Below, piece after piece: positions 22,945 to 63,157 of a stretch of DNA of 64,000 nt. Origin of the DNA: a virus; IMG/VR virus record IMGVR_UViG_3300020193_000003; one strand, written 5' to 3'. A program made the translations under genes and the position numbers. The notes under the pieces are model-generated. The model had not been told where the DNA came from. It ran no database searches and saw nothing but the letters and a program-made list of their open reading frames with translations. Numbering within the stretch: the stretch's first letter is position 1; every line of letters starts with the position of its first letter.

Positions 22945-25900
22945 ATGACCAACCAGCAAACCTCCGACGATCTGGACTACCTCTACAAGTCTCTCAACGG
23001 TCAGATAAACGTCGATGAGGCGCAGGGCATAGTCGAGGCGTTCGTCGCCGGCGTCGGCAACAAGGACGCCGTGGGTGACATCTGTCTGCCGGGGTGCTTT
23101 ACCTCGTCCCTCAAGCGCAGGAAGCCTCGCGTCGTCTGGGGCCACGACTGGAACTCCCCGATCGGCAAGGTGCTCGAGATCTACGAGGTCGGGCCCAACG
23201 ACCCGCGCCTGCCGGCAAAGATGCGCAAGGCGGGCATAGGTGGCCTCTACGCAAGGGTGCAGTTCAACCTCAAGGCGGAGAAGGGCAGGGAGGCTTTCGC
23301 CAACGTGTCGTTCTTCGGCATGGAGCAGGAGTGGTCCATCGGGTACAAGACCCTGGACGCGGTGTTCGACCCGGTGCAGACCGCCAACCTCCTGAAGGAA
23401 GTGGAGCTCTACGAGGTGTCGCCGGTCTTGCACGGAGCGAACCAGCTGACGGGGACGATATCCATCAAGGCGGACGAGGCCGAAACGCAGACCAAGGAGG
23501 GGCAGGAAAAGGCGGGCAAGCCCGTCTTGCGCGACCCCAAGGGCGGACTCACGGCGGCCGGTCGGGCCCACTTCAAGCGCACCGAGGGCGCAAATCTGAA
23601 ACCGGGCGTGATGGGCGCGGCCGACACGCCGGAGAAAATGCGCAGGAAGGGTTCCTTCCTCACCCGCTTCTTCACCAATCCGAGCGGTCCGATGAAGAAG
23701 CCGAACGGCAAGCCCTCGAGGCTTGCCCTTTCGGCCGCGGCGTGGGGCGAGCCGGTGCCGCAGAACGCGTCCGACGCATCCGCGTTGGCGGCGAAGGGTC
23801 GTCGCCTGCTCGAGAGGTACGAGAACTCGAAGAAGAACAAGAAGAAGGACGACGCAGACTCGGTGGAGAACAAGAACTATGTCGCGGCCATCTACTCCGC
23901 CACGAGCGCGCAGCAGAACGAGACGTTCGGCAGGGCATCCGAGCTGACCAGGGCGTTGGCCGCGAGGTTCGGCGGCCCCGTGAGACTGGTGACGGCCGAC
24001 AACGACATAGCGGTGTTCGAGATGGGCGCTGGCGCGTCGGTGGAGACGATGAGGGTCGCGTACCACTACGACGGCGACGAGTTCATGTTCGGCACGGCTC
24101 AGCAGGTGAAGCCCGAGACCGTCTACATCCCGATCAACCAGACGACATCCGGCCAGACGGTCGGCGGGGTCACGACGGGAATAACCCCGAACGTCGGGCA
24201 CCACGCAGGCCACGTCGGTCACGAGGGACACTGCTGTCCTTCCTGCGGAAACGGCGGCAACTGCGACGCATCGGTGGCGCTCACGCGGGGCGAGAGTCCG
24301 AGGATCGCCTTCATGAAACTGAAGTCGCTCGGCGACCAGCTCAACTTTGAGGTCGTGCCGGTCAACGGAGGTTTCCTCCTGAAGGGGTTCGGGTTCCTTT
24401 CCGTCGAGGCGCAGAACTTCGTCGTCAACAAGATAGAGCAGGGAATGAGCCGGAAGTTCGTGAACCCGACGGGGATGGCCATGCGCAGGGGTCTCGGCGT
24501 TCCGAACATAGGTGGTGCCGTGCGCGGTTTCAACGTCGACATGAACCCGTTCACCGCGAGGGACGCCGACCTGGACAAGCTGGTGCTCGAGGGCAACCCG
24601 CTCGTCAACATGGGCCGCGGAGTGCCGGACCCGACGCCGTTCGGGATCCCGGATGGGCCGCGCTTCGGTGATCCGAACATTCCGAGGGTTTCCGACAGAA
24701 TGAATCAAAGACGCCCGCTGATGATGCCGGCGGTGCCCGAGCCGACCGAGGTCCCGGAACCAGCCAAGGAACCAAAGCCGGTGACGGAACCGTCGCCGTT
24801 CGTGCCCAAGCCGAACAGGCCCCCGACCCCAGTTCCGCAACCGGAACCGGAGACGGAGCCGGTCGTGCCCGTTCCCGTGCCCGAGCCGGAGAGAGAGCCG
24901 GTCCCGGTGCGTCCGCAACCAATCAGGCCGACGGTGCCCGTGCGCCCCCTCGTTCCGACTGGCAGGAGGCGTATTCCAAAGAGGTTGGCGGAGGACTTGG
25001 CGCGAGCAGATTCGTTCGACCGCCCGAGCAGGCAGACGAGGCAGCGTCGCCTCAGGGACCAGGGAATCGACGAAATGCGGAGACTGATGCTCCTCGACGG
25101 ACCGGAAGCTGGAATGAGCAACCAGGACTCTCGCCCATTCGTCGGGCGGACGGACATCGAGTCCCGGGAACGGGAATTCTACGAATTGATGCTGGACGAA
25201 CGAAGGGCCGACGACGCACGCACGACTGGCGACACGAGCGTTCTGCGTCCCCGAATACTCGACGATATTTTGGAATATCTCGGAGACGAGAACGAAGACG
25301 ATCCGGATTACGTCCCGTCTGCCGATGAGATCGCCTCTTTGGCGCAGGAATTGGCAGAGGAGGCAGTCGAAAAATTCATAAACGAGGATTATTACGTTGG
25401 CGGCTCGTCCAGCAACCCTGTGTACAGGGGAAGGAACAACAGGGACCTGTGGCCCAGGCGCGACGAAATCTTCAGGAAATTCAGCGGAGGCGACGGGGAA
25501 GCCGGAATGAGCAGAGGCGGAGGCGGCCCCGACGAATTGGCCGACAGATTCCGTCAGGCTCGAGAGGAGAGAGAGCAGCCCGGCAGCAGAGGTCTTGACG
25601 ACGATACGTCGGCAATGTTTAGACAGGCTGAGGATTCTTTGCGCGGAAGTTTCCGTCCGAAGACCAACGAAGTTGATAGGTACGAGTACAGCGACCGAGA
25701 CAACATCAATGCCATGCGGTCGCAGGCCGAAATAATGAGGACGGACTACAACGACGAAGAAGCCGCCCAACTCTTTGAGCAGGCCGCGGACATCCTTGAA
25801 GATCGACTCGCAATGCCCAAGGACGGCGAAATCGTAGACGACGGTACCGAAGTGGAGCGCGAGCTGCTTGAGGCGGAGCGGATTGGGCTTGCGAACTTGT

Positions 25901-38265: not shown

Positions 38266-38313
38266 CTACTATTGCAGTCATACAACAAACAGTCTTCTAC
38301 AATTGGAGGGACC

Positions 38314-40116: not shown

Positions 40117-40128
40117 ACGAGCGAGTCA

Positions 40129-40332
40129 ATGAACGGTAGACCAAGCGGCGAGTACACCCGCGGGAACCGTGTTATGGGTTATGATAAACCTACACAAAAT
40201 AACGCAGTCAAATTGAAATATCACTGCATTGCGACGGGCGAGAAACGCCAGTTTCCATGCGGCAGTTGCGTCAACCACAAGGGTTGCCTAGCGACGACGA
40301 TGCAATACAAGGAGCGAAAACATGGAACCTGA
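40129..40332 (+). CDS. Small Cys-rich (zinc-ribbon-like) protein
   Basis: HCIATGEKRQFPCGSCVNHKGC; the true start may be the internal Met. Confidence 0.55.
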   Translation: MNGRPSGEYTRGNRVMGYDKPTQNNAVKLKYHCIATGEKRQFPCGSCVNHKGCLATTMQYKERKHGT

Positions 40333-42181: not shown

Positions 42182-42192
42182 GGGGGATCGAG

Positions 42193-48100: not shown

Positions 48101-49281
48101 GGGCGAGGGCGGAGTACCTTTCCGACTCCGTCCTCAACGCGGACCAAGTAAACGAGGCGATCCTGTTCGGAAATGTCATGCTCGTGGGCCCAAAATTGCC
48201 CCAGGACCTGTGGGACATCCCGCAGGTCGGCACCTCCTTGTACCTCGACCCGTTCAGCTACTTCAAGAACTATTCCAACTTCCTCAAGGCCGTGATCGAC
48301 GCGTTGCCGGAGCAGGTCAGATCCAGGCTGGGGGGCGGTCCCGACGACCGTGATGACGCCCAACGGTACTGGGGGGACACCTCGCTCTTCGAGGGCATCA
48401 TAATCAGGGAAGACGACGACATCTCCAGAAGGTTCGCCCCCATGATCAGGAAGCAGGCGGGAATAGTGTTGGACCACGCCAGGCGACACGGCGAGCTGAC
48501 GAGGAAGTGGGCGCAAACCGCCTACGACTTGATGAAGGAGGCTGGCCTGACGGACGCAGAGGTGGCTTTCGTTGTCAACGAACACTGGACGAAAGCATCA
48601 ACGTTCAAACTCGCCACGGTGCAACCGGGGAACGTGCTGGGTCACGCGGCGAGGCTGGGCGTGAAGGCGTTCTCCTCGAGGTACTCGCCGATAAGCCGGG
48701 CCATCACCAAGCGCATCGAAGCCGTCCAATCCGGGGGCCTCCGCGAGGAAGAGGATTTCGGCCTGCACGAGTTCTTCCACCACTACCTGGGCCAGGGTTT
48801 CACCAGGCACGGGGAGTACGTGGCGTTCAGGGGTCCGGCCGATCTGATCGATTCCTACCACGGGCACATGCAGTGGGCCTGGAACGACACCGGTCAGCTT
48901 GGGATGTTCGTCTCCAGGATCATGACGCAGGAGTTCGGCCGCGGCAAGACCGACGAGCCGGAGTTCGGGTATTCGCGCACACTCCATGACGCCATCGGCA
49001 GGGCCATCTACGACAGGCTGAAGGAGATGCTCTCCTCGGCCGAGGACAGGCGAAAAATAATGGATCAGGTGTTCCCGGAATTCCACGGGTCGCCCAGCGA
49101 GGACGAGGCGAAGATCAAGGCGCTGATCCGAAGGCAGTTCGCAGGGCGAGACCTTGAAAGGGTCCGCCAATTTGCGGATTTGATGCCCGTCCTCAGACTG
49201 CTCACGGTGCAGGACCTGCTGGTGCCGAAGATGTACTACCCCTACGGGGGAACGAGTAAAATAATCGGGGGGAGCAACTGA
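42193..49281 (+). CDS. Giant polyvalent protein (2362 aa): two ART-like, OGFr-like, HTH array, DUF4314-like, SLOG-like, zincin
   Basis: LYHAT..L..I..EGL; HYDWWAYP; 5-6 HTHs; VYRG..SWS..EEEII; FVVGDMPGVD; HEFFH; six EAGM-type linkers. Confidence 0.88.
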   Translation: MARLERHLRKSPGEKSLGPTVGGAPRNLNPFTARDADLDMVVLEGIATVNFGRGVPDPTPGGAAETPSAPRLRSPLYATNEDFAVAAMSGPNRRPSISEEKDPGDVRNPDGHFPRQAGPMWRDTSFTALHLAPRERRGTSPASVNTYLHAEWTEPYWDAVRDDTGIWNSPPPPEMEVERAIYDAMKRETIEVGGYNVPFPQHPKESDYDQYTDSTGATVRHLTATRSFPFRNRENPRWTDGHPLYHATPTGALPRIVAEGLVAGTDRQLWFGASPTVWNEQFPHNAARQLKSPIKGMSFLRISPTQTMNERLSRLAKVSDVDRATVPGPLAIDSAGNLIGPRDSWAQIAVGLLSDALWFNDIKIPTENIEVLSQTGEWIPLYRTDLSDVVADPTSGPEAGMAKEKNRGIRRILASITNGKHGDDEGADEQKPASKPPAEVPVVAQIPNPEPRIKYSDSYGGDDLIKNEQRIVRIDHEGLVAAGRWKDIHGDHYDWWAYPIDRGSGQYGEAFNVAGEPLRRLREDPEFLASLAREIEIQALALGWSLYDQDWVEKLDWENGQDWRRAYPTRLWKATRSAQIFGLQREFESMLALHDSLAAGGVRFNHEDYWESPGTVDDVPSLGKSWKERQEEWRQRYPASDATSWTSPHRPLPQGPKRGSDDSQMTLLEEDRVWDAYDSYTTPIFPVVSDAEELADILSEPDEMIEFGYPYERIDKETRQLIADDIFFAVSLLMDGEFPDEEFTDRLESAEQMRRYADGQEGLYPEDRDILYALADALENPVSLYEDIGYESTDSPDGEAGMARRFRRLDEEPDYSDMSLSDTEIQNFIESEADEVTDDLIFGREVSRAFAQEEDEPIPRSVIPVRQISIPTLEEIPEDLKQSYIKLWAGGGSFVAINRQLGISNHDGAAIQTALLRSGEILPRTKRTSGDSLRLTPEDERVFVEWSNEGADMDLLTSVFGLTAGQTAEIAADLRSRGLIRRRFQKNFFTDSERDAFATIVKEELAKGRGIWPRSVLRAQRELGWSKQRAQAMLLWYKTQVKFGLMPGIKTQLSDSDMMRFAARWNDGVPEEQLAREFNVAEGSVKWLASKARKRGMRLKRRNSTDLSATDGLRRSPSLSREWLLGVENGTTSGGYQEFMEGMQKRAVALYRDGRTYGQIAKELGITGADAKYLVDRAATSGEKSPRRRGPKSKVAAALGITVDELVERMAARYNEGKTGAEMATEFGTTIGNLNHFLRVAGKRGLLKLRTRRPKTSVKRNVTGASSRKTRPIDGSDGEAGMSGPDSADLPDGIDGELEDHVYEDPVFGLSIKHPLFFWFAPITPEVVDLINASFAKKRASADEALRQKNWGRYIYLHERPYRIDAFEDVMDELTDQEYWSRLSDIWVDSENIGAQPDRWRNLLLSDRGSRESFMTEDERAEFAALQPRFTVYRGYSENDQEEFGMSWSTDAGVAEWFARRFAREDEKIFMEEMEVSKDDVFAYLTRRGEEEIILDMRTAAGGTASRRELPRKPKTRIPTRSRKLTPPDGEAGMSRTTERGDLVRLGRNSNYPSGLQPGSLGRVARVGRDGTISVEIEGELIKLTPGEDHFLVIPRQFDVLYELTDNDGNVIYLPVEDVTYPRLTSAREEAAKAGYRETGIIRGNMRTFFDDATGTYKTERTEFEVIGAQNIRPETTAPVTRQSTDTPDGEAAMSSQKIPKFNGGHSSKGRGTPSGDGKDLAMRDVADSAIVELANDERSSSRTTLETLGSYRAGSMVVMLARNGELRGIPLRDETIQAITKAHDDGAMFVVGDMPGVDSQFVEFLDKIGADYTIYHAGSSPRFRPQPPDARGDAPSELLARVTDEDAQLNLLYSVPGVAASVRMRSTDGAPVAPGKNAIMKPYLLAPHIDVNGLDASDPAIQSLSPALKAAGLGTYKVTGHSTPKVQGPVVKEFADRLIGPSAVADAVLGTFPTADEMLTIYAVNALIRARAEYLSDSVLNADQVNEAILFGNVMLVGPKLPQDLWDIPQVGTSLYLDPFSYFKNYSNFLKAVIDALPEQVRSRLGGGPDDRDDAQRYWGDTSLFEGIIIREDDDISRRFAPMIRKQAGIVLDHARRHGELTRKWAQTAYDLMKEAGLTDAEVAFVVNEHWTKASTFKLATVQPGNVLGHAARLGVKAFSSRYSPISRAITKRIEAVQSGGLREEEDFGLHEFFHHYLGQGFTRHGEYVAFRGPADLIDSYHGHMQWAWNDTGQLGMFVSRIMTQEFGRGKTDEPEFGYSRTLHDAIGRAIYDRLKEMLSSAEDRRKIMDQVFPEFHGSPSEDEAKIKALIRRQFAGRDLERVRQFADLMPVLRLLTVQDLLVPKMYYPYGGTSKIIGGSN

Positions 49282-49484: not shown

Positions 49485-49552
49485 GAAATATACGTCTATA
49501 ATTGTTTGATGATTGTCAAATCCCGTCGCCGGGAATAGAGGATAAAGGGCAG

Positions 49553-52500
49553 ATGTCGCCAACCCCGTTCAGAATTCCGTTCAACGCGAAAATCGTCGCC
49601 AGGCACGGAACGACGTCCGTGTACGCGCTCAGGGATGGGCGCCTCGCCTTCGTCGACCACACCAAGAACCGCACCTTCTTCGACGGGAGCAGGGACGTCG
49701 GGACGGGGACCTACGGGTCCGGTCACAACTCGGCGTGGGCCGACTCGCGCATCGTCGCCGTCGCGTCCAAGGGCGGCTCCGCCTCGTTCGCACAGACCAA
49801 GGCACTCAAACCGAAACAATCCAGGGTGCCACAGGAGGCGCCGGACCAGCCGGGGGAGGAGATTCCCGACGAAGCTTTCTCGCGATTGATGCCGATGATC
49901 CCGAAGGAGTTCCTCGATTGGGCGGCGTCGTACGAGATCGGCGACCCGCTGCCCCCGATGATGCCGGGTTACGGCGGGAGGACGCTGTGCAGTAAATCCA
50001 TAAACGACACCTCCTACTCGCAGGACGACTTCGGGGTGGACCAGGTCGTCGAGCGCGTCCTCGCGGACATGGGTTTGCCAGACATAAACCCGGCCCTCGC
50101 CTTCGCCCCCGAGATCGAGACCAAGGGCCTCCCGCGGATGGAGCAGAAGGGCATCCTCGGCAGGGAGATCAGGGACATGGCGCGCAACATCGTCGACTCG
50201 ATCCTCACGGCGAGGGGCCTGTGGAAGGACGAGCTGAACAAGATTCGCTGCGGGTCGGGGCCGAACGCCAACAGGTTCACCGACATCTTCGGGACCGGTT
50301 GCGACGTGCCGGGCGCCGACATGGCCGGCAACATCGTCGGCGCGATAAGGGCTGGGGTGGACGTTCCCGGTCCGGTGGACGAGGTGGCGGGGAAGATCGA
50401 GGGGGCGAGGGAGAGCGTCGCCGACGCGGCCGACGGAATTGACGTCCCGGGCGGAAAATCGTCCCTCGGCGAAAGGCTCAGGATGGCGCTGACGAGGGTC
50501 CGGGGCGGGCACACGCCGCACTACGTGGCCGACATGCCAGGCGACATTGACCCGGCAGCCGGCATGTCAGACGTGTTGAACAGGAGGTCCGACAAGAGGG
50601 GAGGGTTCCTGTTCGTCCGATCTCTCGTTTCGCGCAACAAACGGCGCGAGCGCGCCAAGAAGGCAGTGGGTCGTTTCGAATCCGCGGAGAAGATGGCCAG
50701 GGAGGCCTTCGCCACGCGCGAGTACCGCGACTGGGAGCAGGACTTCACGCTGAGAAAAGGCAGGCTGCCGAACCAGGGCGAGAAACTCAACTGGTTGGCC
50801 GAGCACATCGGATGGAAAGGACAGTTCAGGGATGCGGCCGGCAAACTAGTGACGGACGAGCACGGCAACCCGGTGGGAAGCTTCGGGGGGTTGGCCGACA
50901 CCGCGGTCGTGGACGGGGTCGTGACCGACATGACCCATTTCGAAGCGATGGTCGAGCAGATAGTGCGCGACCCGAGATTCGTGGAGGGCGGTAATTTCGA
51001 CAGGCTGAGCGAGGCCCAGAAGAGACGGCGCAGGGAGGAGGTCGCAAGGAACATATACGAGTACGGGCTCCAGACCCTGTTTGCGATGAAGAACGCCGGC
51101 GGACCGGAGAAGATAGAGCAGATCCAACCCGACGGGAGCAGGATCCTGGTAGACAACCCGGAGCACAAGAAACGCTTCGCCGAGGTAATACCGACCCATT
51201 TCCGCGTAATTCACCCGACAGACCCCAGCAACTTCCGTGGACTCGCGGATGCGGCAGTGGTCACCGGGGTCAACAGTTTCGAACCGGGATTTGATGACGA
51301 GATCGACTTTGTCCCGTTGCTGGGGACAGATCGGCGGATGACTGCGGGACGACCGCTCACGGCGGGCGTGCAGCGCCATGGAAGGGTCGCCGGTTCTCTG
51401 CCGTTGTACGCGCATGAGAACCAGACCCGTGGAGGCGAAATTCCGTTCGTGGCCTCCATAAGCCTGAATCCGGTGTGGTTCACCGACCGGCAAACACAGA
51501 AGGACAAGCTCAAGGCCTTCGGCGGTGACCACCTGGGGATGGACATAAGCAGGGAGGCGTTCTGGGCGCACACCGCCGACCACGAGCTGAACCACGTAGA
51601 CGACTTCGCCCAGAGACTCGGGAACAAGCTCGGATACTGGGGGGAACTCGGCGGCGGCCGGGAGGAGTGGATGCGGAGGCTGTCGCAGCAAACGTACACG
51701 CGCACGCCCACGGGTGGTTATTGGTCGAACGTGATAGACCTCCGCAAGGACGCGGCCAGCTACACGTTCCTCGGGCAGCAGATCGCGGAACTCGACGCCA
51801 AACTCGCCGCGGCCACGACGACCTACGAGAGACAGAAGGCGATTTGGTTCTTCTACATGCAGAACATGAGGTTCAACGAGCGGACGATGTCCGACTTCGC
51901 AAGGTGGATGAACAGATCGGGCGCCGGTTTCACGCCCGGCAAGCGCCTTTCGAAGGCCGAGCAGGCCGCGATGCTCACAGAGATCTTTGAAAACCTGCGG
52001 GCGCGCGGCTACTCCGAGGAGCACGGGGTGCCAACCTTCAGTTTCTGGGAAGACATGATGGACACGCCTCTGGGTTACTGGGACCCAGCGACGGGGAAGT
52101 TCGAGTTCCCGATGGACCCGCGCACCGGGCGCCTGAACCCGTACCCGCTGAACGTGATGAACCTGCAGCCGAAGTGGACGGGAAGAAGAACCCCGGCGAA
52201 TGTTCCCTTCTCGGAAAACGTGGCCACATTTGGGATTGAACTCGATCCGGCACGCTTCGGGCCTGGACGGGACCCGTACGGGCAGGCGAGGCTTGACAAC
52301 TCCGTCTCCAACCTCCTGCACGGATACATAGGGGGGACCTACGCCGGCGAGGACGACTATGAATTCGCGGCGGAGCTGAGGACGCAACTGAACAAACAGG
52401 GCGCGCTCGCCGACGTCAGGGAGTTCCTCGCCGACCCCGCCCGCAACATACACCAGCTCACCGAAGCCGACTTCATGACGCTCGTGGCCAGATACGTGGG

Positions 52501-55500
52501 GACGGACGAGGTGCACAGACTCTACGGGGAACCGGTGCCGGGACCAAGAGCACTTCCCGATGGTGTTATCGGCCCGGGAGGCGGGGCACCCCCGCCACCT
52601 GGCGCGGGTGGGCCACCGGGCGGAGCACCGAGAGGACCGATGATCCCCCTCGGGCCAGGCTCGCCACCAAGGACGCCCCCTGATGGGGGAGGCGGCGCCA
52701 CTCCGCCCCCAGCCTCCCCCGGATCGCGTGGGACCGCCACCGGGCCGACGATTCCGACGGTGCCACGAGCCGACGACCCAGACATTCCCACTCCCGACGA
52801 TACGACTCCGCCCCCAGCCTCCCCGCGGTTGCGCGGAACCGCCACCAGGCCGACGATTCCGATGCGTCCGTCGGACGAAGGTCCAGAAGCTCCCGGCGAC
52901 GCCCCGGAGCCCGAGGCTCCATCGAGGGTCCGTGGCACGGGAGTCAGGAGACCGACCAGGCCGACGACCGACGACGATCTCGTAGAGCCGACGGTCAGAC
53001 CCGAAACCGACGCGGATCGCGTTTCGCCGGAAAGACGCAGAGCCGACGCGGACAGGGAAAGAAGGGTGCGCGAGCTGTTCGGCGACGAAGAAGATCCAGC
53101 CGAAAGAGAGCGTTCCGGGACGAGAACAACCGACTCCGCGGAGGAGACTTCGCCCGATCGCCCGAGAACGACGGCATCTGCCGCGAGGGACGAACTCAAC
53201 GCCGCTCGAAAGAGGGCGCGCGACAGGCGTTTCGCGGAGCGGGAGGAAGCGGACAAAAGGGCGGAAGAAGCATCCCGCAGGATGGCGGAAGCCAGGTATT
53301 ACGAGGGCGTCTACGGGGACGTCGAGCAAGCAGTGGAAGATGCAAAACGCAACATCCCGTCCGATAGTCGAATCAACCCTAGAGATCGCGAAAGGCGCGT
53401 TCGCACAATGGACGAACAAGTTGCGGCGAGGCGCAAGGCGCTTGATAAGGCATCGGCCGCGACCGATCCAAAAGAACGCAGGGGGCAGCAAATAGTCGCC
53501 GCCGCGCTAGAAGCGGAATTGATGTATAAAGCTGGGCAAATAGATTACAGAACCAACGAGCGCCGACAAGCGGACCTGTCGGTCCTGGCCGACCTAAACG
53601 GAACGCCACTCTACCGGGACGACCAAGGCATGTTCAAATTGGAAAGCAGCGTTCCGGAATGGCAGAGAACCGAGGGACCCGACTCGATCGACGATTCGGC
53701 CGAATCCGTCGCTTCTAGAACGGCTTTGGCCGAAAGAATGTTCGGAGAGAGCGAAGCCTCGGAACTCTTGGGCACTCGTTCTTCCGAGACCGACGGACCC
53801 ACCGCCGATTCGCAAGCGGACAGGTTGAGGCTGAACCAAATTCGCGAGGAACGAGTCAACGCCACGGCGCGCGTAGCGGACGCGGAAACTCGCCACGACG
53901 AAGCCCTCAGGAGGGCGAGGCGCACGGGATCCGATCCCGACAGGGGAGGGGACGGCGACCCGGCGGCGTGGGCGGATTACAGGGCGGCCTACGAAGAATT
54001 GAACGAGGCGGACGCCGAGAACGCCAGGCTGCTGCGCGAGTCCAGGGAGCTCGAGGATCGGATACCGAAGAGCGAGACACCGACGCCCGCCACGACCAGG
54101 GATCCCTCCAGGAGATCGTACGAGCGACCGGAAACTCCCGAAGGCATCATCGTGGAAGGCGAAACCCCGCAACGGCAGATACGAATGATCAACCAGACCA
54201 CGGGGGAAATAATTTACGTGGATCCGAGCAACGCTCGCATCATGGATGAAGTCAGGGCAGAGGGCTTCGCTCCGGACGTGAGGCAACCCACCGCTCCCGC
54301 CAGGAGACAGGCCAGTGGGCGAGAAAAACCGCGAACGAAACCCGCACGTGAGCCCGATTGGGTGAGACGCGAGCGGGCCCGACGTGATCGGGCGGGATTG
54401 GCCGACGATATTCCCGGATACGACGACGAGCCGGATGTGGGAATGGCGCCTCCGGTCAGGAGGGGATCGGATTCCGACGGGGTGAGGGAGTTCCTGGAGG
54501 AGGGCGACGGGGCCTTCATGACGCCCGAGCAGGCCCGCCTGCAAAGGGACGGAGCCGTCGAGCGCCGGGAGTCGGCCATCTCGCAGCGCGAGAGGTTGAT
54601 AAACGAGAGGGACGGGGTTGAGAACGGCGTCGTCGGACGCAACCTGACGGACGATCAGGCGCAGAGACGGGTTGAGGAGCTGAACCGCCAGATAGCCGAC
54701 CTGGAGAGAAGAATAGACGACCACGAGAGAACCGCGGAGTTGTTCTCGGAGCACGCACGGAAACTCGAGGAGGGAATCCCCATCAGGGGGAGACGAGGCG
54801 GCGACGCTGAAGCAGGGATGGCGCTTTACAGGCCGAAGAACGTCGTCACAACGACGAACGACCCACCGACTTCAATGAACCCGGGAACGATAACCTCGGA
54901 CGGAGGATTCCAGGCTTACACGTTTGATTTTGCGACTTACGAATTCGACGGGCCCGACGGCATGGAACGAATAATCTTCGAGGACCCGAATCTCGTCAAC
55001 ATGGACGATCCCTCGATTCGGGTCATCCCGAGAAATCCGTACGCGATCACCGGGACCGACGAGTTGAGCGAAGAGGGTCGGAGCTTGGCGCGCAGGTACC
55101 ATCTCGCAAAGGCCGGTTTGATGGAGAGGAACCGTCTCGCTGGCGAGAAGGACCAGTACGATGTTGACGGCTACGTCGATTCCCTGCTCTACAGGGCCTC
55201 GATGGGTGACCCGGAAGCCGAAGCGCTAATTGCTGAGTTGTCGGATCTTGGCGAACAAATTCGGGAAGAGGCGAGGGCACGGAGAATAGCGAAAGACCTA
55301 GATGACAGCTTCGGCGAAATAGCCCAGTCGGAGATAGACGGGTCCAAGGGTGCCGCGACGCTGAAGGCTCTGACGCCCGATAAATTGGCCCTGGTCCACG
55401 AGACGAAATACGAACCAAGAGTTCTCCCCGACGGCACCCTGGAGATCCAGCCGTTGGCCGATTTTCCGACGAACCCGCCTTCCGAAGGTCTCGACACGAT

Positions 55501-58500
55501 CGACGGGAAACCGACCTACCCGAACGTAAACTACCCGCGTCACACCGTGCACTTTGGGGTCGGCGGGTTGGCCGGTGGCCACGTTCAAAGACAGAGCCCC
55601 AAGGACATTGACCCGAACCAACGGGTGTGGGTGGTGGTGACCAATTTCGGTGAGGCCATGGATGCGAATCCCGGTTCCGTCGAAACGATGCGTCTGGAAG
55701 ACACGAGTCTCACCCCGAGAGCCGGGGAGGGACTGAGATTTCCCCCGGGGACCTTCCGGATCTTGGAACTCACGGGGGACAAGAAGGCGGATTTCGCCAC
55801 GATGAACGGGGCGATTCTGGAGGTCGGCGGAACCCCACTCCCGGCAGACATGGACTATTCAAGGTACGGCGGCTCGGCCAGGTCCCGGAGGATATCTCAA
55901 ATGGCCGCCGAGTTGGGTTTCCCCTCCGTTCTGGATGTCGACCATCCGAGCTCCCTGGGCCATCGGGGCTCAATGCGAAGGGGTAATTTCATCGATCGGC
56001 GCGAGGCTTTCGCAACGGCGTTGCCGATCGAAGAATCATCGCTCTCGATGCTCAGCGACAACAGTCTCGAGCGAATCAGCACCTCCACGCACACGTACGG
56101 CGGCGGGGTCGTTCGCTACGTGAATGATTCGGACACGTACATCGAGCTTTTCCCGCCGGACCTACAGGAGCGAATCGACCAGGGGCTCATCAGCAAGCGC
56201 GACGCACGCAGAGAACTAACTGGCAGAGTTGAAGCCCGCAGGGCGGCACGGGCTCAATCCGCCGACGGGCCGAGCGCCGGCATGGCGAGGGGGACGAGCG
56301 AGGAAATCTTCATGCGACCCGACGGAACCTTCGACATCGGCCCGGACACGGGTGGGCGCTCCGCCCTGCGACCGAGTCGCATTGACGAAGAAGTTGTGAA
56401 CCAGGCAGTGATCCAGGCTAGGCAGGAGGTGGTCAGCGAGGTTCTCGACAACCCGTTCGCAACCGACCAAGACTTCGGGCGCGCCTCGCAGGCGATCGAC
56501 CTGATGGAGGATGCGATCGGCGCGGACGCTGCCGAGCGGCTCAGGAACAGACTCGCGAGGGCGCGGGCAAGGCGAGACAGAAACAGTCCCCAAACGATGC
56601 CGGAAATTAGACCGTACTTGATCAGGCCCCCGCAATACGGCGACGACTCGTTCGGGAACCGCAACCGCGTCGGCGACATGGCGCGCGCCATGTCGCGCCC
56701 CGACGACCCGAGGAATCCGCCTCGCACCGCCACGGCGAGATTGGCGCACATGGACACCGCCAACTCGTCCGTCGCAAGGGACATAACTTACGACCCGCAA
56801 AACGGAGACCTCACGGTCACCTACAACGACGACAGGGTCGTCACGTTCACCGACGTGCCGTACGAGCGCGTGCGCAAGGCGGGTTTCGACGACCTGCCGG
56901 ACGACCTGATCAGCGAACTGGAGAACGAACAGAACCAGATGCGCAGCAGGCCAATCGGCAGGATGTCCGACGGCAACCGGGCCCGCAGGAACGTCTCGGG
57001 CCCGAGACGATTGCTCTCCGAGGGGAACTTCCGGTCCAACGAACGACGGCAACCACCCGGCGCTGAGCAGTTCGACGATGGGCCGTCGGCCGGCATGGGC
57101 CGAACGTACGAAACCCTGGTCGGCACGCACGCCAACGTCGTCTCCAGAAAACGAGACGAGTTGGCGAAGGCGCAACAAACGCTTGACGGGATAGGCACCC
57201 GCAGGGACAAGGGGTTGGTGACCGAGGACGAGGCCAAGGCGGTCGCCTCTGCGTTCGCGGACCTGTTCTCCGGGGACATGAGGGTGCAGAGCAATTTTGA
57301 GGGGAGACTGAGGACGGAGTTGCTCAGCGACGGTCGCACCATGGTCAGGTTGGATGCGCAAGTGAACTGGGAGGAGATGGTGCAGGTCCAGGACCTGACG
57401 AGCATCCCCATAACCATGCAAATAAAGTCCGCCGACGGAAAAACGATTTACGGGTACGCCTCAAGGAGGCTGGAGATAGGCGAGGACGGAATCACCGTCC
57501 ATCACGGTTCCCTCACCATCTCGCCGGAGTACCGCGGCAAGGGGATAGCCAGCGAGTTCAACGCAAGGAACGAGAACCTCTACAAAGCCCTCGGGGTCAG
57601 GAGCATAACGACCAGCGGATCCTCCTCCTCGGTTACGAGCACAAACAACCCGTTCGAGGACCAGGTGATCGGAACCGGCGCGACCCACTGGGCCCGCAAC
57701 GGGTTCACCTGGAGGGACGATGACGCGAAACAAAAATTCATCGGAATCATAGACTCGGCATTGTCTAGGAAGCCGGGAATCTTCTCGGACGAGGAGAGGC
57801 AGAGGATATCCTCCCTGTACAAGAGGGGCCGATCCGGGGACTTTCAGACGTCGGCGACCGCGGAAGAGCTGGTTGATTTCGAGGCCGCCGACAGATTGTT
57901 CGCCGAGGAAGGCGCGATCATCGGGTACAGGAGGGACCTGGCGCCCGCCGAGATTGCTGCTCCGAAACCGTCGAGACTCACCAGGATCGCCGACAGGCTC
58001 GGCCGGCGCTCCCGAAACCGGCGCGACGAAACGGACGGTCCGTCGTTCGAGCCGCCTCCCTGGGACCCGGATGCCGAGCTGGAGGAGGCGCTGGATGACA
58101 GGCGGGCCCGCCGAATCGCGGAGTCGCTGGCGGCGGCCGAGCTCCCGGATTTCGTCAGGGATTGGGACCCGGAAGCAGGGATGGCGGAGACGAGGAGGGC
58201 GAGATCGGCAGCGAAGAGACGAAACGCGGCCATGGCGAGGAACGTTGGCCCGGCACTCAAAGGGGACACGGATGTCAAAGAGAAAAGCGTGGACCCGGCG
58301 CCGCCGCCGTTCTCGCGAAGGGACTCGCAGAAATTGACCCAGGTGACTGCGGATTCCGACGCGCTCAATGCGTCGATCGTCCAGCAGAGAAAGGCCCTCG
58401 TCGACAAGTACGCACCGGGCAGGCACGGAGAGCCAGTTGAGTCCTATGCGGACGAGCTCATGGACAGCATGGGCGTCGCGCGCGAGACGGGCCTGAAGGG

Positions 58501-60097
58501 CAAGCCCATGACGTTCGGCGAGCAACTGGACCAAGCCATGGACTTCTTCCTCAGGACAGCCGAACAGGACGGCAAAGAAGATCAGGTCGCCGACCCGAGG
58601 GACAGTCTTGAGGACAGGGATGTCTCCTTCATGAAGGGGGCGGCCAAACTGGCGGCCCTCGAGCTGGCCCAGACCGAGGAGGGAAGGAAGAAGGTCAGGG
58701 AGGCGATGGCGACGGCGATTCTCGATACTTTGGCTGGGGCCGAGCCAGCACTGGAGAAGGACCCGTCACTGAGGCGGGCCACGACCATCAGAATCCACAT
58801 GAACGACAGGTCGGATCTGAGAAAGTTCGCCGGGTACGCAAGTTCGGAGATCGATGGGGATGGCAGGGTGGGGCTCGTCGTATCGCTGGTTCCCAACGTG
58901 CTGGTCTTTGACTCGAGCTTGTTCGTAGGATCCGACGAAGGCCCGTTGTCCAAGGGGCAGGGTCTGTCCGAAGTTTTCCGCTTCGCCGGCTCCGACGATT
59001 ATCACTTCGGGCTCGGCGTGCACGAGTACGCGCATTTGGAGCACTACAGGTCGTGGTACGCGAGCCTCGGGTTGCGGGTCGGACGGGACGCGCCACCGTT
59101 GTCGGCGCAGCCGAAAGGTCGCCTCGGCGACAGCCTGATCGGGGCGGAAATATCCCGGAAACACAACTTTCCGATGGATGCAACCTGGGACGAGGTTCGC
59201 GAGACGTTCGCCAAGACACTCGGCAACCAATGGGATGCGCGGCAATTGGCCGACCAACACAACATCATGCATATCTCTCATGCCCCCAGCCTCGACGATT
59301 CCATCTACGAGATAGTTGAACAAATTTCCCATGGAAGCAAAAAGGAACAATTACGACAAATAAGGGGAGCCTGGTCCAAAGACATTGGCGGACAAATAAC
59401 GGATGTTTTGACCCCGGCTGGAGCAACCAACTACAGGGCGCAGGATTTCGGCGCCATGCTCAGCGCGCTGACGAGCTACGAAAGAAGCCTGGAGAATCCG
59501 TTTTTGGGCATGAATCCGGAGAACCTGACAGAGGAGCAAAAGCGGTGGGTAATCGAAAGGATAAAAATGCCGGAAAAAATTGGTAGCAAATTCCTCGCGT
59601 TGGAAGGCAGGGATGGGTGGGACGACGAAGTGAAGTTCCTTGACGCCCCGGCGGTGAGAAAGATCGTGAACGATGTGCTTGAGGGGCAAACGCCGGAAGA
59701 GTTCCTGGCCGAGCACAAGAGGATCATGGACCAGGTGCTTGGTTACGACTCCGGGTTCGCCTCGACGCTTGGCGTGCCGACCGACGAGGTCATGCGGGTT
59801 CTGGGCAGGTCGTCGCTGTACGGGCAGACGAACATCATGGAGGCCGTCGCCGAGGCCCGAGTGGTGACCCTCTATGCGGAGCGTTTCCGCGAGTCGCTCA
59901 GCATCAAGCAGCTTGAGCAAGTCGAGGAGATGAGGGAAATGCTGGAACGGGTGCTCCCGGACCCGTCCGGCGGCGTGGCGGTTCGGAACCTGACGCCGGA
60001 GGCGAAGGAACATTTTGCTAGACTGGCGAGGATGTTGGGCAAACTTCCGATACTGAAACTCGACCCTGAAGCACTCAAAGCGGCACTCAGGGCGTAG
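49553..60097 (+). CDS. Giant polyvalent protein (~3514 aa): two zincins, Pro-rich linker, coiled coils, KTSC, GNAT
   Basis: Probable ATG at 49553; HELNH (51581); HEYAH (59021) with YGQTNIMEAVAE; KTSC-like SSVARDITYD..L.V.Y...F.DVP; GNAT ISPEYRGKGIA...WARNGF; six AGM-type linkers. Confidence 0.88.
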   Translation: MSPTPFRIPFNAKIVARHGTTSVYALRDGRLAFVDHTKNRTFFDGSRDVGTGTYGSGHNSAWADSRIVAVASKGGSASFAQTKALKPKQSRVPQEAPDQPGEEIPDEAFSRLMPMIPKEFLDWAASYEIGDPLPPMMPGYGGRTLCSKSINDTSYSQDDFGVDQVVERVLADMGLPDINPALAFAPEIETKGLPRMEQKGILGREIRDMARNIVDSILTARGLWKDELNKIRCGSGPNANRFTDIFGTGCDVPGADMAGNIVGAIRAGVDVPGPVDEVAGKIEGARESVADAADGIDVPGGKSSLGERLRMALTRVRGGHTPHYVADMPGDIDPAAGMSDVLNRRSDKRGGFLFVRSLVSRNKRRERAKKAVGRFESAEKMAREAFATREYRDWEQDFTLRKGRLPNQGEKLNWLAEHIGWKGQFRDAAGKLVTDEHGNPVGSFGGLADTAVVDGVVTDMTHFEAMVEQIVRDPRFVEGGNFDRLSEAQKRRRREEVARNIYEYGLQTLFAMKNAGGPEKIEQIQPDGSRILVDNPEHKKRFAEVIPTHFRVIHPTDPSNFRGLADAAVVTGVNSFEPGFDDEIDFVPLLGTDRRMTAGRPLTAGVQRHGRVAGSLPLYAHENQTRGGEIPFVASISLNPVWFTDRQTQKDKLKAFGGDHLGMDISREAFWAHTADHELNHVDDFAQRLGNKLGYWGELGGGREEWMRRLSQQTYTRTPTGGYWSNVIDLRKDAASYTFLGQQIAELDAKLAAATTTYERQKAIWFFYMQNMRFNERTMSDFARWMNRSGAGFTPGKRLSKAEQAAMLTEIFENLRARGYSEEHGVPTFSFWEDMMDTPLGYWDPATGKFEFPMDPRTGRLNPYPLNVMNLQPKWTGRRTPANVPFSENVATFGIELDPARFGPGRDPYGQARLDNSVSNLLHGYIGGTYAGEDDYEFAAELRTQLNKQGALADVREFLADPARNIHQLTEADFMTLVARYVGTDEVHRLYGEPVPGPRALPDGVIGPGGGAPPPPGAGGPPGGAPRGPMIPLGPGSPPRTPPDGGGGATPPPASPGSRGTATGPTIPTVPRADDPDIPTPDDTTPPPASPRLRGTATRPTIPMRPSDEGPEAPGDAPEPEAPSRVRGTGVRRPTRPTTDDDLVEPTVRPETDADRVSPERRRADADRERRVRELFGDEEDPAERERSGTRTTDSAEETSPDRPRTTASAARDELNAARKRARDRRFAEREEADKRAEEASRRMAEARYYEGVYGDVEQAVEDAKRNIPSDSRINPRDRERRVRTMDEQVAARRKALDKASAATDPKERRGQQIVAAALEAELMYKAGQIDYRTNERRQADLSVLADLNGTPLYRDDQGMFKLESSVPEWQRTEGPDSIDDSAESVASRTALAERMFGESEASELLGTRSSETDGPTADSQADRLRLNQIREERVNATARVADAETRHDEALRRARRTGSDPDRGGDGDPAAWADYRAAYEELNEADAENARLLRESRELEDRIPKSETPTPATTRDPSRRSYERPETPEGIIVEGETPQRQIRMINQTTGEIIYVDPSNARIMDEVRAEGFAPDVRQPTAPARRQASGREKPRTKPAREPDWVRRERARRDRAGLADDIPGYDDEPDVGMAPPVRRGSDSDGVREFLEEGDGAFMTPEQARLQRDGAVERRESAISQRERLINERDGVENGVVGRNLTDDQAQRRVEELNRQIADLERRIDDHERTAELFSEHARKLEEGIPIRGRRGGDAEAGMALYRPKNVVTTTNDPPTSMNPGTITSDGGFQAYTFDFATYEFDGPDGMERIIFEDPNLVNMDDPSIRVIPRNPYAITGTDELSEEGRSLARRYHLAKAGLMERNRLAGEKDQYDVDGYVDSLLYRASMGDPEAEALIAELSDLGEQIREEARARRIAKDLDDSFGEIAQSEIDGSKGAATLKALTPDKLALVHETKYEPRVLPDGTLEIQPLADFPTNPPSEGLDTIDGKPTYPNVNYPRHTVHFGVGGLAGGHVQRQSPKDIDPNQRVWVVVTNFGEAMDANPGSVETMRLEDTSLTPRAGEGLRFPPGTFRILELTGDKKADFATMNGAILEVGGTPLPADMDYSRYGGSARSRRISQMAAELGFPSVLDVDHPSSLGHRGSMRRGNFIDRREAFATALPIEESSLSMLSDNSLERISTSTHTYGGGVVRYVNDSDTYIELFPPDLQERIDQGLISKRDARRELTGRVEARRAARAQSADGPSAGMARGTSEEIFMRPDGTFDIGPDTGGRSALRPSRIDEEVVNQAVIQARQEVVSEVLDNPFATDQDFGRASQAIDLMEDAIGADAAERLRNRLARARARRDRNSPQTMPEIRPYLIRPPQYGDDSFGNRNRVGDMARAMSRPDDPRNPPRTATARLAHMDTANSSVARDITYDPQNGDLTVTYNDDRVVTFTDVPYERVRKAGFDDLPDDLISELENEQNQMRSRPIGRMSDGNRARRNVSGPRRLLSEGNFRSNERRQPPGAEQFDDGPSAGMGRTYETLVGTHANVVSRKRDELAKAQQTLDGIGTRRDKGLVTEDEAKAVASAFADLFSGDMRVQSNFEGRLRTELLSDGRTMVRLDAQVNWEEMVQVQDLTSIPITMQIKSADGKTIYGYASRRLEIGEDGITVHHGSLTISPEYRGKGIASEFNARNENLYKALGVRSITTSGSSSSVTSTNNPFEDQVIGTGATHWARNGFTWRDDDAKQKFIGIIDSALSRKPGIFSDEERQRISSLYKRGRSGDFQTSATAEELVDFEAADRLFAEEGAIIGYRRDLAPAEIAAPKPSRLTRIADRLGRRSRNRRDETDGPSFEPPPWDPDAELEEALDDRRARRIAESLAAAELPDFVRDWDPEAGMAETRRARSAAKRRNAAMARNVGPALKGDTDVKEKSVDPAPPPFSRRDSQKLTQVTADSDALNASIVQQRKALVDKYAPGRHGEPVESYADELMDSMGVARETGLKGKPMTFGEQLDQAMDFFLRTAEQDGKEDQVADPRDSLEDRDVSFMKGAAKLAALELAQTEEGRKKVREAMATAILDTLAGAEPALEKDPSLRRATTIRIHMNDRSDLRKFAGYASSEIDGDGRVGLVVSLVPNVLVFDSSLFVGSDEGPLSKGQGLSEVFRFAGSDDYHFGLGVHEYAHLEHYRSWYASLGLRVGRDAPPLSAQPKGRLGDSLIGAEISRKHNFPMDATWDEVRETFAKTLGNQWDARQLADQHNIMHISHAPSLDDSIYEIVEQISHGSKKEQLRQIRGAWSKDIGGQITDVLTPAGATNYRAQDFGAMLSALTSYERSLENPFLGMNPENLTEEQKRWVIERIKMPEKIGSKFLALEGRDGWDDEVKFLDAPAVRKIVNDVLEGQTPEEFLAEHKRIMDQVLGYDSGFASTLGVPTDEVMRVLGRSSLYGQTNIMEAVAEARVVTLYAERFRESLSIKQLEQVEEMREMLERVLPDPSGGVAVRNLTPEAKEHFARLARMLGKLPILKLDPEALKAALRA

Positions 60098-60109
60098 GGG
60101 GGTGGCACC

Positions 60110-60316: not shown

Positions 60317-60406
60317 ACAATTGACTGGCTCGTCGCAACCCGTCAATGGGGTACAATCAAATAGCCAGCCTCAGGTGGCCATCCACGGCAAGGGCGTAAG
60401 TTACCG

Positions 60407-63157
60407 ATGACTCGTAGAAAGATAGGTTTTGGGCGCAGGGGTCGCGACTCGTTCGTCGACGACAAGACCGACGTCGCCCTGTCGTCCGTGACGCAGCTGG
60501 CGGAGACCTTGAGGACGAAGGTCATGCGACCCATCGGCGCCGGGCTCCTCCCCCCGCCCCACCTGGTGAGGAACGCCGACTCGGACCCCTACATCTACGA
60601 GGGGATCCCGTGGATCAACAGGGGCCGCGGGATAATCGACCCGACGCCAGGCAACGTGCAACCACTCAACAGAAGGCTGAGAAGGGAGGCGCAGGCAAAC
60701 CTCGGAACCCCGGCGCGAATCGTCGCGATGCGACCAAGTCCCATGGTCACCATGAGCCACGCGGACGGGCCCGTGGCGGCCATGGTCGATCCGAGAATTC
60801 TGTCTCGCCCAGAGAACATCATCCCGATCGACGAATTCTCGGGGCCGATGCAGGAGATTGAAACCCGCGTCGACGCGATTCTCGGGCCCAAACCGGCGAC
60901 GCTCAAGGAGGCGACGGACAACCTCAAGAAATTGGAGAACATCGTCAATTCGGGGGTCGCCAACGGCAACAACTTCCTGCTTGACCTCCCGTATTTTGCG
61001 GCGCAAATGCAACCAGGGTTGGCTCGGGTCAGCCCCAGGTTTGCCGGGCCGGCCACGCCGATGTCCAGTTACGACTACGGGTTGTACTACGGGATTGCGG
61101 TCAACCTGATCGATTATCCCGAGGCCTTCAGGGATGTTCATTTGACGATCACGACGATCAACAATCCCGACGAGCAAACCCCAGAAACAATTGGGGCGAA
61201 CACGGCGTCCCCGCCGTCCTACTTCAAGATTTCCCCGAAATCCGAGTCCAGGAGGGAAGTTCCGGGAGGAACGCCCATGATGCTCCTGAGTCAGGTCAGG
61301 GCGGACACCGGTGTCAACGACATGTCGGGAGCCAAAATTCACCCAACCGGAGGGAAAGCCACCACCGGCGCGCGCCTGCCGCAAATCGTTTCCTTTCCCA
61401 CATACAAGAGCGACGGCCAGAAGGCAACCAAATTGATGTACGGCCAACAAGCCATCCACGAACTTGAAATTCCGGAAGATTACATTGAGAAATTGGAGCA
61501 AAATCTGGCTTTTTGGGAAAAGGTCCTTGCGGCGACGGGGGTGGCGCGACAATCGCTCATCGACTCCACGGTCTCGTCCGTGGCGCTGGGTTATTTGCAG
61601 GAAATGCAAAACCTGCAAGGGAAAATATCGCAACTCAAAGACATGACGTCCCAAACGCCCCATCCGAACGCCCTGCAGTCGGTCCGGGCGCTGGAACAGA
61701 GAATGTCGGAACTCTACTCCGAGTCCCAAAAAGCGGTCGCGATGGTGACGGCGATGCACGAAATGGGCCACGTGCTCGACTATGTGGGCGAGTACAGAAG
61801 CTCCCCGGACTATTTGAACGCAATCGCCCAGACGTCCAGTGGCTTGAACAGCCAGTACGAGATGGATCGCGACTTGGGCGTCGCCCAAGCAATTGCACAG
61901 GGTTTGGACCACCCCATAAAGGCGGACCTAGCGGAAAATCTGTCAAGGAAGTTCGTCAAGGAAAAACTCCTGCAAATGATTGGGATCATATCCAGGAGGA
62001 AATCATTGCCGCAGGTGCGGGCGATGGCGCAGGTCGTCGGAGACGGGCTCATGGCGATGGATGCCTCCCTGAAGGGCATGCTCCGCAAGCGGGCTTCCCC
62101 GGCCGACACCGAATCCGACGTCAAAATTGTCACTCGCGTTTGGTACGACATCCTCGCCCGCGAAGTGGGCGACATCAACAGTAGAATTATGCCGGGAACG
62201 CTGATCGCGCCGCTTGTCAACTCGCAAGTTATTGAGCCCAGGCTGGTGTCCGATCCAGCGAAATTGACGAAGATGGCCGAACAGGCCATAAGCCAGATCA
62301 GGAAAATAGGGGAGGACAGCATCGCCGCGTTCGCCGACCCCGGGGCCAGAGAGCAGTACGACTTCTACGTTGAATCCATAGATGCCCTCATCAAGGCGGC
62401 GGAGGAAAGAATCAGTCTCTTTCCTCGTCCCCAACAACGTGCGATCGCACTGGCGGTGACGGCGATAGCGGCCCACAACAGCTACCTGGAAGGGTTCAAA
62501 GCCTTCATGCTCAACACGAGCCAGGAGATGAATGATCTAGCGCAGGAAGAACAAGCTCTCGCGTATCTAGCCCCCTGGTTCGGGAACAACGTTACCCAGG
62601 AGGACATGGACCAGGCAGTCCTCAACAACGGCAGGAAGATCATGACCGATTTGTTGACCGTCAACCCCGCGATGGTCCGGGAGTTCATGGAGATCTACGG
62701 ACGCAACGAAGGCAAACCGTGGTTTGACGGCGCCGGAGCGTTTGATGCGACCGAGTACCTGAAGGACATCCTGGGGGGTGGGCCAAACAACCTGAAGGGC
62801 ATAACTTTTGCCGAGCTGGTGATGGTGATAAACCAATGGCACGGAACCCAAGGAACCAACGGTTGGAAGAATCTCACCGACAAGGAGATAGGGCTCATTC
62901 GGTCCGCCGTTGACAAACTCACCGAATACGGCGGTCCGGCGGATTACGATTTCGTGATTCCTTTGCCAAAGTTCCAAATGTCAACCAACAAGGAAACCTA
63001 CGCCGAGCTGCATCCGATGATCCTGATGAGAATGGAGCGAATGTTGCAAAGGCTCACCGCCGAGGAGAGGCGAGCGGTGGAGCGTCTGTACGAAGAGATG
63101 ATCGCAAGGGCCAGAGCCGTCATAAACCGCACCAACCAGGGAGGCACAACGCCATGA
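60407..63157 (+). CDS. Zincin-like metallopeptidase-containing protein with shared N-terminal motif
   Basis: RNADSDPYIYEGIPWINRGRGIIDPTPG; DGPVAAM linker; HEMGH (61757) and TNKETYAE. Confidence 0.8.
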   Translation: MTRRKIGFGRRGRDSFVDDKTDVALSSVTQLAETLRTKVMRPIGAGLLPPPHLVRNADSDPYIYEGIPWINRGRGIIDPTPGNVQPLNRRLRREAQANLGTPARIVAMRPSPMVTMSHADGPVAAMVDPRILSRPENIIPIDEFSGPMQEIETRVDAILGPKPATLKEATDNLKKLENIVNSGVANGNNFLLDLPYFAAQMQPGLARVSPRFAGPATPMSSYDYGLYYGIAVNLIDYPEAFRDVHLTITTINNPDEQTPETIGANTASPPSYFKISPKSESRREVPGGTPMMLLSQVRADTGVNDMSGAKIHPTGGKATTGARLPQIVSFPTYKSDGQKATKLMYGQQAIHELEIPEDYIEKLEQNLAFWEKVLAATGVARQSLIDSTVSSVALGYLQEMQNLQGKISQLKDMTSQTPHPNALQSVRALEQRMSELYSESQKAVAMVTAMHEMGHVLDYVGEYRSSPDYLNAIAQTSSGLNSQYEMDRDLGVAQAIAQGLDHPIKADLAENLSRKFVKEKLLQMIGIISRRKSLPQVRAMAQVVGDGLMAMDASLKGMLRKRASPADTESDVKIVTRVWYDILAREVGDINSRIMPGTLIAPLVNSQVIEPRLVSDPAKLTKMAEQAISQIRKIGEDSIAAFADPGAREQYDFYVESIDALIKAAEERISLFPRPQQRAIALAVTAIAAHNSYLEGFKAFMLNTSQEMNDLAQEEQALAYLAPWFGNNVTQEDMDQAVLNNGRKIMTDLLTVNPAMVREFMEIYGRNEGKPWFDGAGAFDATEYLKDILGGGPNNLKGITFAELVMVINQWHGTQGTNGWKNLTDKEIGLIRSAVDKLTEYGGPADYDFVIPLPKFQMSTNKETYAELHPMILMRMERMLQRLTAEERRAVERLYEEMIARARAVINRTNQGGTTP

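Follow-up and report, generated by a model that had tools for sequence, protein, structure and literature searches.

How a phage that encodes giant head-module proteins might direct them into its capsid is the question raised by the stretch analysed here, a window of 64,000 nucleotides (nt) of the IMG/VR record IMGVR_UViG_3300020193_000003, in whose positions all gene coordinates are given. The source is an uncultured phage with a genome estimated at ~145-150 kilobases (kb), and its host group is probably the actinobacteria. From 20.6 kb on, the + strand holds a head module that starts with a fusion of portal and MuF domain and continues, in this order, with proteins of 5106, 614, 619, 2362, 3531 and 916 amino acids (aa). 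We find that four of the six large head-module proteins of the window carry one copy each of a ~38-residue peptide, referred to below as the tag, in which an acidic D-x-D-x-D loop is followed by E-G and then by G-R-G-x-x-D-P-T-P; the copy in the 614-aa protein is a shorter form. The proposal we favour, and to which we give roughly an even chance, is that this peptide serves as a capsid-loading or anchoring tag for head cargo and that its use is coupled to protease processing.

A shared acidic peptide in the head module

The original prediction had described the peptide in four head-module proteins, and all four copies do lie in + strand frames where it had placed them. In the 5106-aa polyprotein (22945..38265, +) the match to a profile built from the tag copies covers residues 531-568, with the acidic loop beginning at residue 540 and D-P-T-P ending at residue 571 (nt 24562-24657). 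The short form in the 614-aa protein (38272..40116, +) spans residues 123-161, its loop starting at residue 132 (nt 38665), and the 2362-aa cargo polyprotein (42193..49281, +) has its tag at residues 26-63 (nt 42268-42381) by the profile and at residues 35-66 (nt 42295-42390) for the peptide itself. A second flavour of the tag is found in the 916-aa protein (60407..63157, +), at residues 48-84 (nt 60548-60658), with the peptide at residues 56-84 (nt 60572-60658). Two regular expressions for the halves of the motif, composed after the motif had been seen and therefore post hoc, matched four and three times in the open reading frames (ORFs) of the window against 0.003 and 0.001 matches expected from 2000 shuffles, and neither had any other match in the six-frame translation of the window.

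Many relatives of the phage are present in IMG/VR, and three large contigs (88-117 kb, estimated to be 59-79% complete) were used for comparison; the most distant member of this four-genome set shows 62% identity in the protease region. Searching all ORFs of at least 80 aa that were kept by a simple greedy ORF call, the tag profile found exactly one copy per carrier, with domain expectation (E) values of 1e-13 to 1e-23, and 5-7 tagged proteins per genome, all of them within the block from portal to capsid gene or just after the capsid gene. No match was obtained in the portal, capsid, acidic 619-aa, 697-aa, tail or replication ORFs of the four genomes. The count of four carriers thus holds for the window and the total is larger, as the relatives have further carriers of ~1850 and ~5250 aa past the point where the window ends. 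Across the set, the tag lies at about residues 520-610 of the protease polyprotein, at 123-161 (short form) of the basic-repeat protein, at 26-63 of a protein of 1866-2457 aa, at 30-85 of one of 913-956 aa, at 218-277 of one of 1848-2040 aa and at 119-157 of one of 5244-6466 aa. The leaders come with two tag flavours, one in the 916-aa and ~1850-aa proteins and one in the others. The long form of the tag gave 41 matches, all in head-module families, and is confined to the lineage of the window. Ahead of the tag, the ~5250-aa proteins of the relatives have a small Cys-containing domain (G-C-x-G ... W-M-P-C, residues 40-100), and an unrelated zeta-toxin carrier has two such domains at its N-terminus.

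When the most distant genome is compared with the others, the leaders cannot be aligned apart from the tag. The five copies in this genome have 28-32 of 38 residues in common and use the same codon at only about half of the conserved residues, which argues that the peptide is held by selection on each copy rather than by recent gene conversion; the latter was therefore rejected as the source of the likeness within a genome. Synonymous sites are near saturation, and the alignments point to strong purifying selection on the tag. AlphaFold models place it outside the folded domains: predicted local distance difference test (pLDDT) scores are 26-38 in the tag region of the 5106-aa protein, whose first 620 residues form domains at 20-160, 200-300, 330-385 and 440-500 (block pLDDT mostly 65-85) ahead of a stretch scoring under 50 at residues 501-611, and below 50 for residues 1-135 of the 916-aa protein, tag included, ahead of a confidently modelled body that starts at about residue 136. 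The tag thus probably lies in a disordered leader.

Flanking sites, a second leader and the wider family

The tag is part of a larger cassette, with a K-[AS]-L-G-like element on its upstream side and an A-A/G-M linker on its downstream side in nearly all copies. In 11 of 22 copies, K-[AS]-L-G or R-G-L-G is located ~10-16 residues before the profile match, usually continuing as x-T-[IV]-G-G, and these words are rare elsewhere; the second-flavour leader has K-[VLM]-[ML]-x-P-I-G upstream instead. The upstream element is the same as the cut site of HK97 gp5, in which K-S-L-G occupies residues 103-106 and the solved mature chain comprises 282 of 385 residues, identifying this position as the known maturation cut, and the likeness suggests that an S78-type cleavage may occur here as well. 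On the other side, a linker follows within 60 residues of the tag in at least 8 of 22 copies, against a background of 8% (P = 2e-4, calculated post hoc).

None of the four window carriers lacks either flanking element. The cassette of the 5106-aa protein (24487..24657, +) opens with R-G-L-G from residue 515 and is kept in all relatives down to 62% identity, while K-A-L-G, K-S-L-G and K-V-M-R are found at residues 109, 15 and 38 of the 614-aa, 2362-aa and 916-aa proteins, respectively. As had been claimed, the motif precedes the first E-A-G-M-type linker, which lies at residues 721-724 (nt 25105-25116) of the 5106-aa protein, at 85-89 (V-A-A-M-S, nt 42445-42459) of the 2362-aa protein and at 123-127 (V-A-A-M-V) of the 916-aa protein, with P-E-G-M at residue 164 of the 614-aa protein. 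For the 2362-aa protein, the sites on both sides of the tag are kept in three of the four genomes, and a variant, F-A-x-A-A-M, is kept after the tag in two protein families. Compared with other ORFs, the giant head proteins have linkers of this type ([DGP]-x-[EDAPSV]-[AG]-[AG]-M-[SAG]) at 4-13 times the density, depending on the genome; the linkers differ from the HK97-type K-S-L-G site, and their sites in the window span 25105-60000. The idea that the tag mimics the capsid protein's N-terminal arm was discarded, as there is no profile similarity to HK97 gp5 or to the capsid protein of the lineage.

The only giant head protein that lacks the acidic tag is the 3531-aa cargo polyprotein (49502..60097, +), which had been noted, with a length of ~3514 aa, to have a different leader. 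This leader is real: R-C-x-x-G ... R-F-T ... C, at residues 238-267 (nt 50213-50302), is kept in all four genomes amid divergent flanks. The two tags are mutually exclusive, and every giant therefore bears one or the other.

Outside the lineage, the window form proves to be a specific version of a wider tag, D-x-D-G-D-G-x-V-Q-D-G-T-P-x-E-R-P. A degenerate scan of IMG/VR DNA with D-x-D-G-D-G-x-[IV]-x-[DE]-G-T-P gave, among the matches listed, the longer consensus [FY]-x-P-x-A-x-D-x-D-G-D-G-x-V-Q-[DE]-G-T-P-x-[EQ]-R-P. A profile search of 5.8 billion proteins produced at least 634 matches, and an exhaustive search of 1.84 billion cluster representatives produced 978 at E <= 0.001 and 141 at 1e-10, many of the 978 having 2-5 tag copies. 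The domains accompanying the tag include the S78 protease with or without DUF6321, ART-PolyVal, an ADP-ribosyl exotoxin together with NUDIX, zeta toxin, sigma-70 region 4/helix-turn-helix (HTH), and PG_binding_1. In protease fusions the tag stands exactly where cargo is appended; the more distant ones have a shorter tag form after the same protease module, and related short proteases (~560 aa) stop just before the tag position and are without it, which weakens the alternative that the tag is the protease's own targeting tail. Where one protein has several copies, each stands ahead of a module and has a K-[AS]-x site 4-25 residues before it. Among 222 fetched carriers, 144 of 309 copies lie within 120 residues of the N-terminus, and in many small carriers it is the extreme C-terminus that bears the tag.

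As to genomic context, two other large phages have four giant ORFs each with one tag apiece. In a complete 61-kb phage, MuF/ADP-ribosyltransferase (ART) genes stand on one side of an 885-aa carrier and protease/capsid genes on the other; a carrier of 78 aa is flanked by protease and capsid genes, and one of 169 aa comes immediately behind a capsid-like gene. The restriction to head modules anticipated for the motif accordingly holds in the four related genomes and is incomplete beyond them, where a few short-form carriers occur in tail or lysis neighbourhoods; these carriers also touch, in part, the objection that the motif might be common in non-virion proteins. Small proteins that join one or two short-tag copies with a peptidoglycan-binding domain were seen as well, at least one of them adjoining an endolysin-like gene and not a head module. 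Of one small carrier family, the N-terminal domain alone matches Arthrobacter phages, where it occurs without the tag. A tblastn search of tag regions and small carriers against 50,697 deposited phage genomes returned nothing useful, probably because the short acidic queries were masked. In the literature we found no description of the motif, of DUF6321 or of D-x-D-x-D-G in phages, and the wider tag is apparently undescribed.

Possible roles of the tag

In order to rationalise these observations, we propose that each giant protein encoded between portal and capsid gene carries one tag in its disordered leader as a portable address. The tag would bind a shared component of the procapsid, so that the carrier is built into the head; the inner face of the capsid or its N-terminal scaffold domain, the acidic scaffold-like protein and the core are possible partners, and the EF-hand-like acidic loop may require a divalent cation for the interaction. 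One or more maturation proteases would then uncouple the cargo from its anchor, as the position of the tag between a K/R-[ASG]-L-G element and an A-A/G-M linker suggests, and would cut the chains into modules that are delivered together with the DNA. As the several modules of a single protein in other phages are each preceded by a copy, the tag may stay on the mature cargo rather than being part of a removed leader. Packaging into the capsid and delivery are predicted for the window polyproteins, a prediction supported by their position between portal and capsid gene and by the prohead protease fusion. Of the packaging tag originally proposed by analogy with phage T4, the idea that head cargo shares a tag for its addressing or handling is favoured by the distribution, selection, disorder, flanking sites, second tag and wider carriers taken together, and the likeness to the T4 signal is functional only, with no relation in sequence.

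Several observations weigh against this proposal. A loading tag looks redundant in the 5106-aa protein, which already includes the protease as a fusion partner, and the AlphaFold model did not show the tag docked on the protease module of its own chain, the pLDDT of the tag being 26-38. Two to five tags in one protein, each just after K-[AS]-x, exceed what loading would need and would leave a tag on each mature module. In the Streptomyces phage Gilgamesh (MN234216.1), a 4624-aa hypothetical protein (20697-34571) directly follows the portal-MuF gene and precedes the capsid gene; its architecture is the same, and it has neither the acidic tag nor the second leader tag. Some carriers reside in unexpected places, namely a 106-aa one before a major tail protein, a 147-aa one among tail fibre genes and a 97-aa one with a peptidoglycan-binding-like domain beside endolysin-like and replication genes. 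DUF6321 is absent from five other tag-bearing records, one complete and four of them fragments of 8-45%, and was rejected as a universal partner of the tag. The last two points concern the cation: the short form and the wider family have glycine at loop position 6, where the long form of the window has K, M, P or another residue, and the best matches among solved structures, calmodulin EF-hand loops aligned over 8-11 residues of the D-x-D-G-D-G-x-[IV] stretch, are weak (E 0.002-0.08).

The acidic spacing had been likened to a DxDxDG calcium loop, and this comparison stands for the spacing of the aspartates and for the weak EF-hand matches, and fails at the glycine that the long form lacks. All copies retain EF-hand loop positions 1, 3, 5 and 8, the last being hydrophobic, and the short form reads D-x-D-G-D-G-x-[IV]. 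Position 12, by contrast with an EF-hand, is T, N or I and not acidic; an acidic residue stands at position 10, and G-x-P follows in place of an exiting helix. Pfam gave no EF-hand match in the carriers examined. Judged from these residues, calcium binding by the tag is plausible.

A more far-reaching version of the proposal, which we regard as a tentative possibility, sees in the tag a portable peptide that HK97-type phages in general would use to load and retain cargo. Its docking would depend on a cation and take place at a conserved site inside the HK97-fold shell or its scaffold domain, in the manner of encapsulin loading peptides, and with the upstream K-[AS]-L-G the tag would form a modular 'cut-and-tag' joint by which dozens of injected enzymes could be added, swapped and individually anchored, the R-C-x-x-G...R-F-T...C tag being a parallel route.

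The competing explanation that survives best, although we hold it to be doubtful, takes the tag as part of an extended processing junction: as a P'-side recognition or presentation element for an S78 cut at K/R-[ASG]-L-G, it would mark where to cut and not where to go. The Lys/Arg site 4-25 residues before the tag, found in the window lineage as well as in polyvalent proteins with several copies, where each module has its junction, agrees with this, as do the identity of that site with the gp5 cut K-S-L-G and the location of the tag at the junction of protease and cargo in the fusions. However, the proteins of the window lineage have one tag each against up to 14-16 linkers of the other type, so that most joints are managed without it; many small carriers with the tag at the extreme C-terminus have nothing to release, and the tag profile does not match the presumed cut region of the capsid protein itself.

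If the upstream Lys site is cut, the tag would become the N-terminus of each released module, and it might then act on mature modules after assembly, either as a retention or ordering signal for exit through portal and tail or, following injection, as a host-side signal or cation-dependent switch. The nearly half of all copies that lie near the N-terminus (144 of 309) would fit such a role, and the cell envelope would be the site of action of small carriers that have peptidoglycan-binding domains. We nevertheless consider it unlikely: the second site after the tag would strip it from the cargo in the window lineage, C-terminal copies do not suit a model that puts the N-terminus first, and no known ejection or host-targeting signal resembles the tag. 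Least probable is that the tag has no address or signal role, being a small cation-binding spacer or a leader inherited through duplication and recombination of cargo genes, since, even though the two leader flavours have common flanks as paralogous leaders would and the first half of the tag resembles EF-hand loops, the tag has been conserved while its surroundings diverged past alignment with synonymous sites near saturation, occurs at either end of many unrelated protein families and is mutually exclusive with an alternative second tag.

The head module and its known counterparts

The head module opens with the 739-aa portal fused to a MuF domain (20639..22858, +; Pfam Phage_portal 8.6e-51, Phage_Mu_F 8.6e-11), which has no tag and whose closest annotated relatives are actinophage portals, including the portal/MuF-like fusion of Gilgamesh. 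The 5106-aa polyprotein that follows combines an S78 prohead protease (residues 25-179) and DUF6321 (196-267), both identified by Pfam, with two more folded domains, after which come the tag, a spacer rich in proline and cargo modules that extend over ~4400 aa and are connected by E-A-G-M-type linkers (n=14). Between the linkers of the window proteins of 2362-5106 aa there are sigma-70 region 4, RNase_T-like and other modules; in the 2362-aa protein the linked modules come after V-A-A-M-S. Highly basic tandem repeats downstream of P-E-G-M make the 614-aa protein a candidate DNA-associated internal protein. Its orthologues in other phages consist of DUF6321, tag and basic repeats, and one relative has a paralogue, also tagged, just after the capsid gene.

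The very acidic 619-aa protein (40322..42181, +) has no tag. It has Cys-rich N-terminal stretches and, at the C-terminus, a weak match to the C-terminal part of PHROG 80, head maturation protease, as well as two repeats of the D-G-S-Y-P-I type (D-G-S-Y-P-I ... A-I ... G-R), a motif that also ends many actinophage head-protease proteins. Possibly this protein is a scaffold, which would make it one candidate partner of the tag. The 916-aa protein contains H-E-x-x-H; its mostly helical body was modelled with fair confidence (predicted template modelling score, pTM, 0.63), and it had no significant match in the PDB by Foldseek and belongs to no Pfam or PHROG family.

In the contigs of the relatives, an HK97-type capsid gene is located 60-66 kb downstream of the protease. 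The gap holds the same giant genes and extra ones of 697, ~1850 and ~5250-6466 aa, so that prohead protease and capsid gene are separated by ~60-66 kb, or roughly 40% of the genome, occupied by giant genes with products of up to 6466 aa. The capsid protein of the relatives is close to HK97 gp5 (E about 1e-47). In one relative it has an N-terminal extension of ~165-185 residues compared with gp5; the region aligned to the gp5 cut reads R-G-S-G-L-G, not K-S-L-G, and K-S-L-N is found ~40 residues further upstream.

Among known systems, the nearest functional parallel is phage T4, whose internal proteins and Alt have removable targeting peptides (PMC9958956, PMC7411985). As with the T4 capsid-targeting sequence (CTS) of IPI-III and Alt, a short peptide is common to otherwise unrelated proteins, which in T4 are injected after packing into the head and here are predicted to be, lies in a leader beside protease sites, candidate ones in the present case (PMC9958956, PMC7411985), and accompanies cargo that includes ADP-ribosyltransferase-type enzymes. 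The differences are equally clear: the CTS comprises ~10-20 residues at the extreme N-terminus, whereas the tag has ~25-38 residues, starts at residues 26-540 in the window proteins and can be internal or C-terminal. T4 relies on a gp21-type protease that cuts after Glu ((L/I)-x-E), whereas here the protease is Pfam Peptidase_S78 and the flanks are K-[AS]-L-G and A-A/G-M; the best candidate cut is upstream of the tag, the tag can recur in one protein, and the two have no sequence similarity. Head proteins of SPN3US also have propeptides (PMC9958956, PMC7411985), and in SPN3US and phiKZ-like phages these are long disordered leaders with a proposed role in prohead targeting that are removed by the prohead protease (PMC7411985), although protease family and cutting motif are different and no such common conserved peptide has been described there.

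A second parallel is provided by the polyvalent proteins of phages and conjugative elements (Iyer et al. 2017, PMC5512222), very long multi-domain effectors for which packing into the capsid and delivery along with the DNA have been predicted. The likeness lies in the many unrelated effector domains per polypeptide, and carriers of the tag include ART-PolyVal, zincin-like, HTH and zeta toxin domains, the known domains of the carriers corresponding to the repertoire of polyvalent virion cargo (PMC5512222). In that work, the MuF domain and peptidases are named as parts for packaging and processing; as far as a term search of its text extends, neither the acidic tag nor a prohead-protease fusion is discussed (PMC5512222).

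With HK97 gp4 and gp5 the system has in common the S78 protease family, a capsid close to that of HK97 and an upstream element equal to the gp5 cut; HK97 differs in having no known cargo proteins, and the tail of its protease shows no similarity to the tag. Work by Duda and colleagues in 2013 is reported to have found that foreign proteins can be brought into the capsid by a short C-terminal segment of the HK97 protease alone. Encapsulin loading peptides are short and terminal and dock diverse cargo enzymes on the inner face of an HK97-fold shell; they differ in having another consensus and no protease step, and in belonging to cellular nanocompartments, not virions.

How head proteins are chosen in tailed phages other than T4 is largely unknown, and the tag, common to almost all giants of the window and to about a thousand protein clusters of uncultured phages, offers a concrete handle on this question. 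It can be used for mutation, reporter fusion and partner pull-down and for predicting virion-delivered effectors from sequence alone, and the cultured phage Gilgamesh might be used as a model in which to study giant head-module proteins experimentally. If the tag were sufficient for loading, it would provide a tool to pack foreign proteins into HK97-type capsids.

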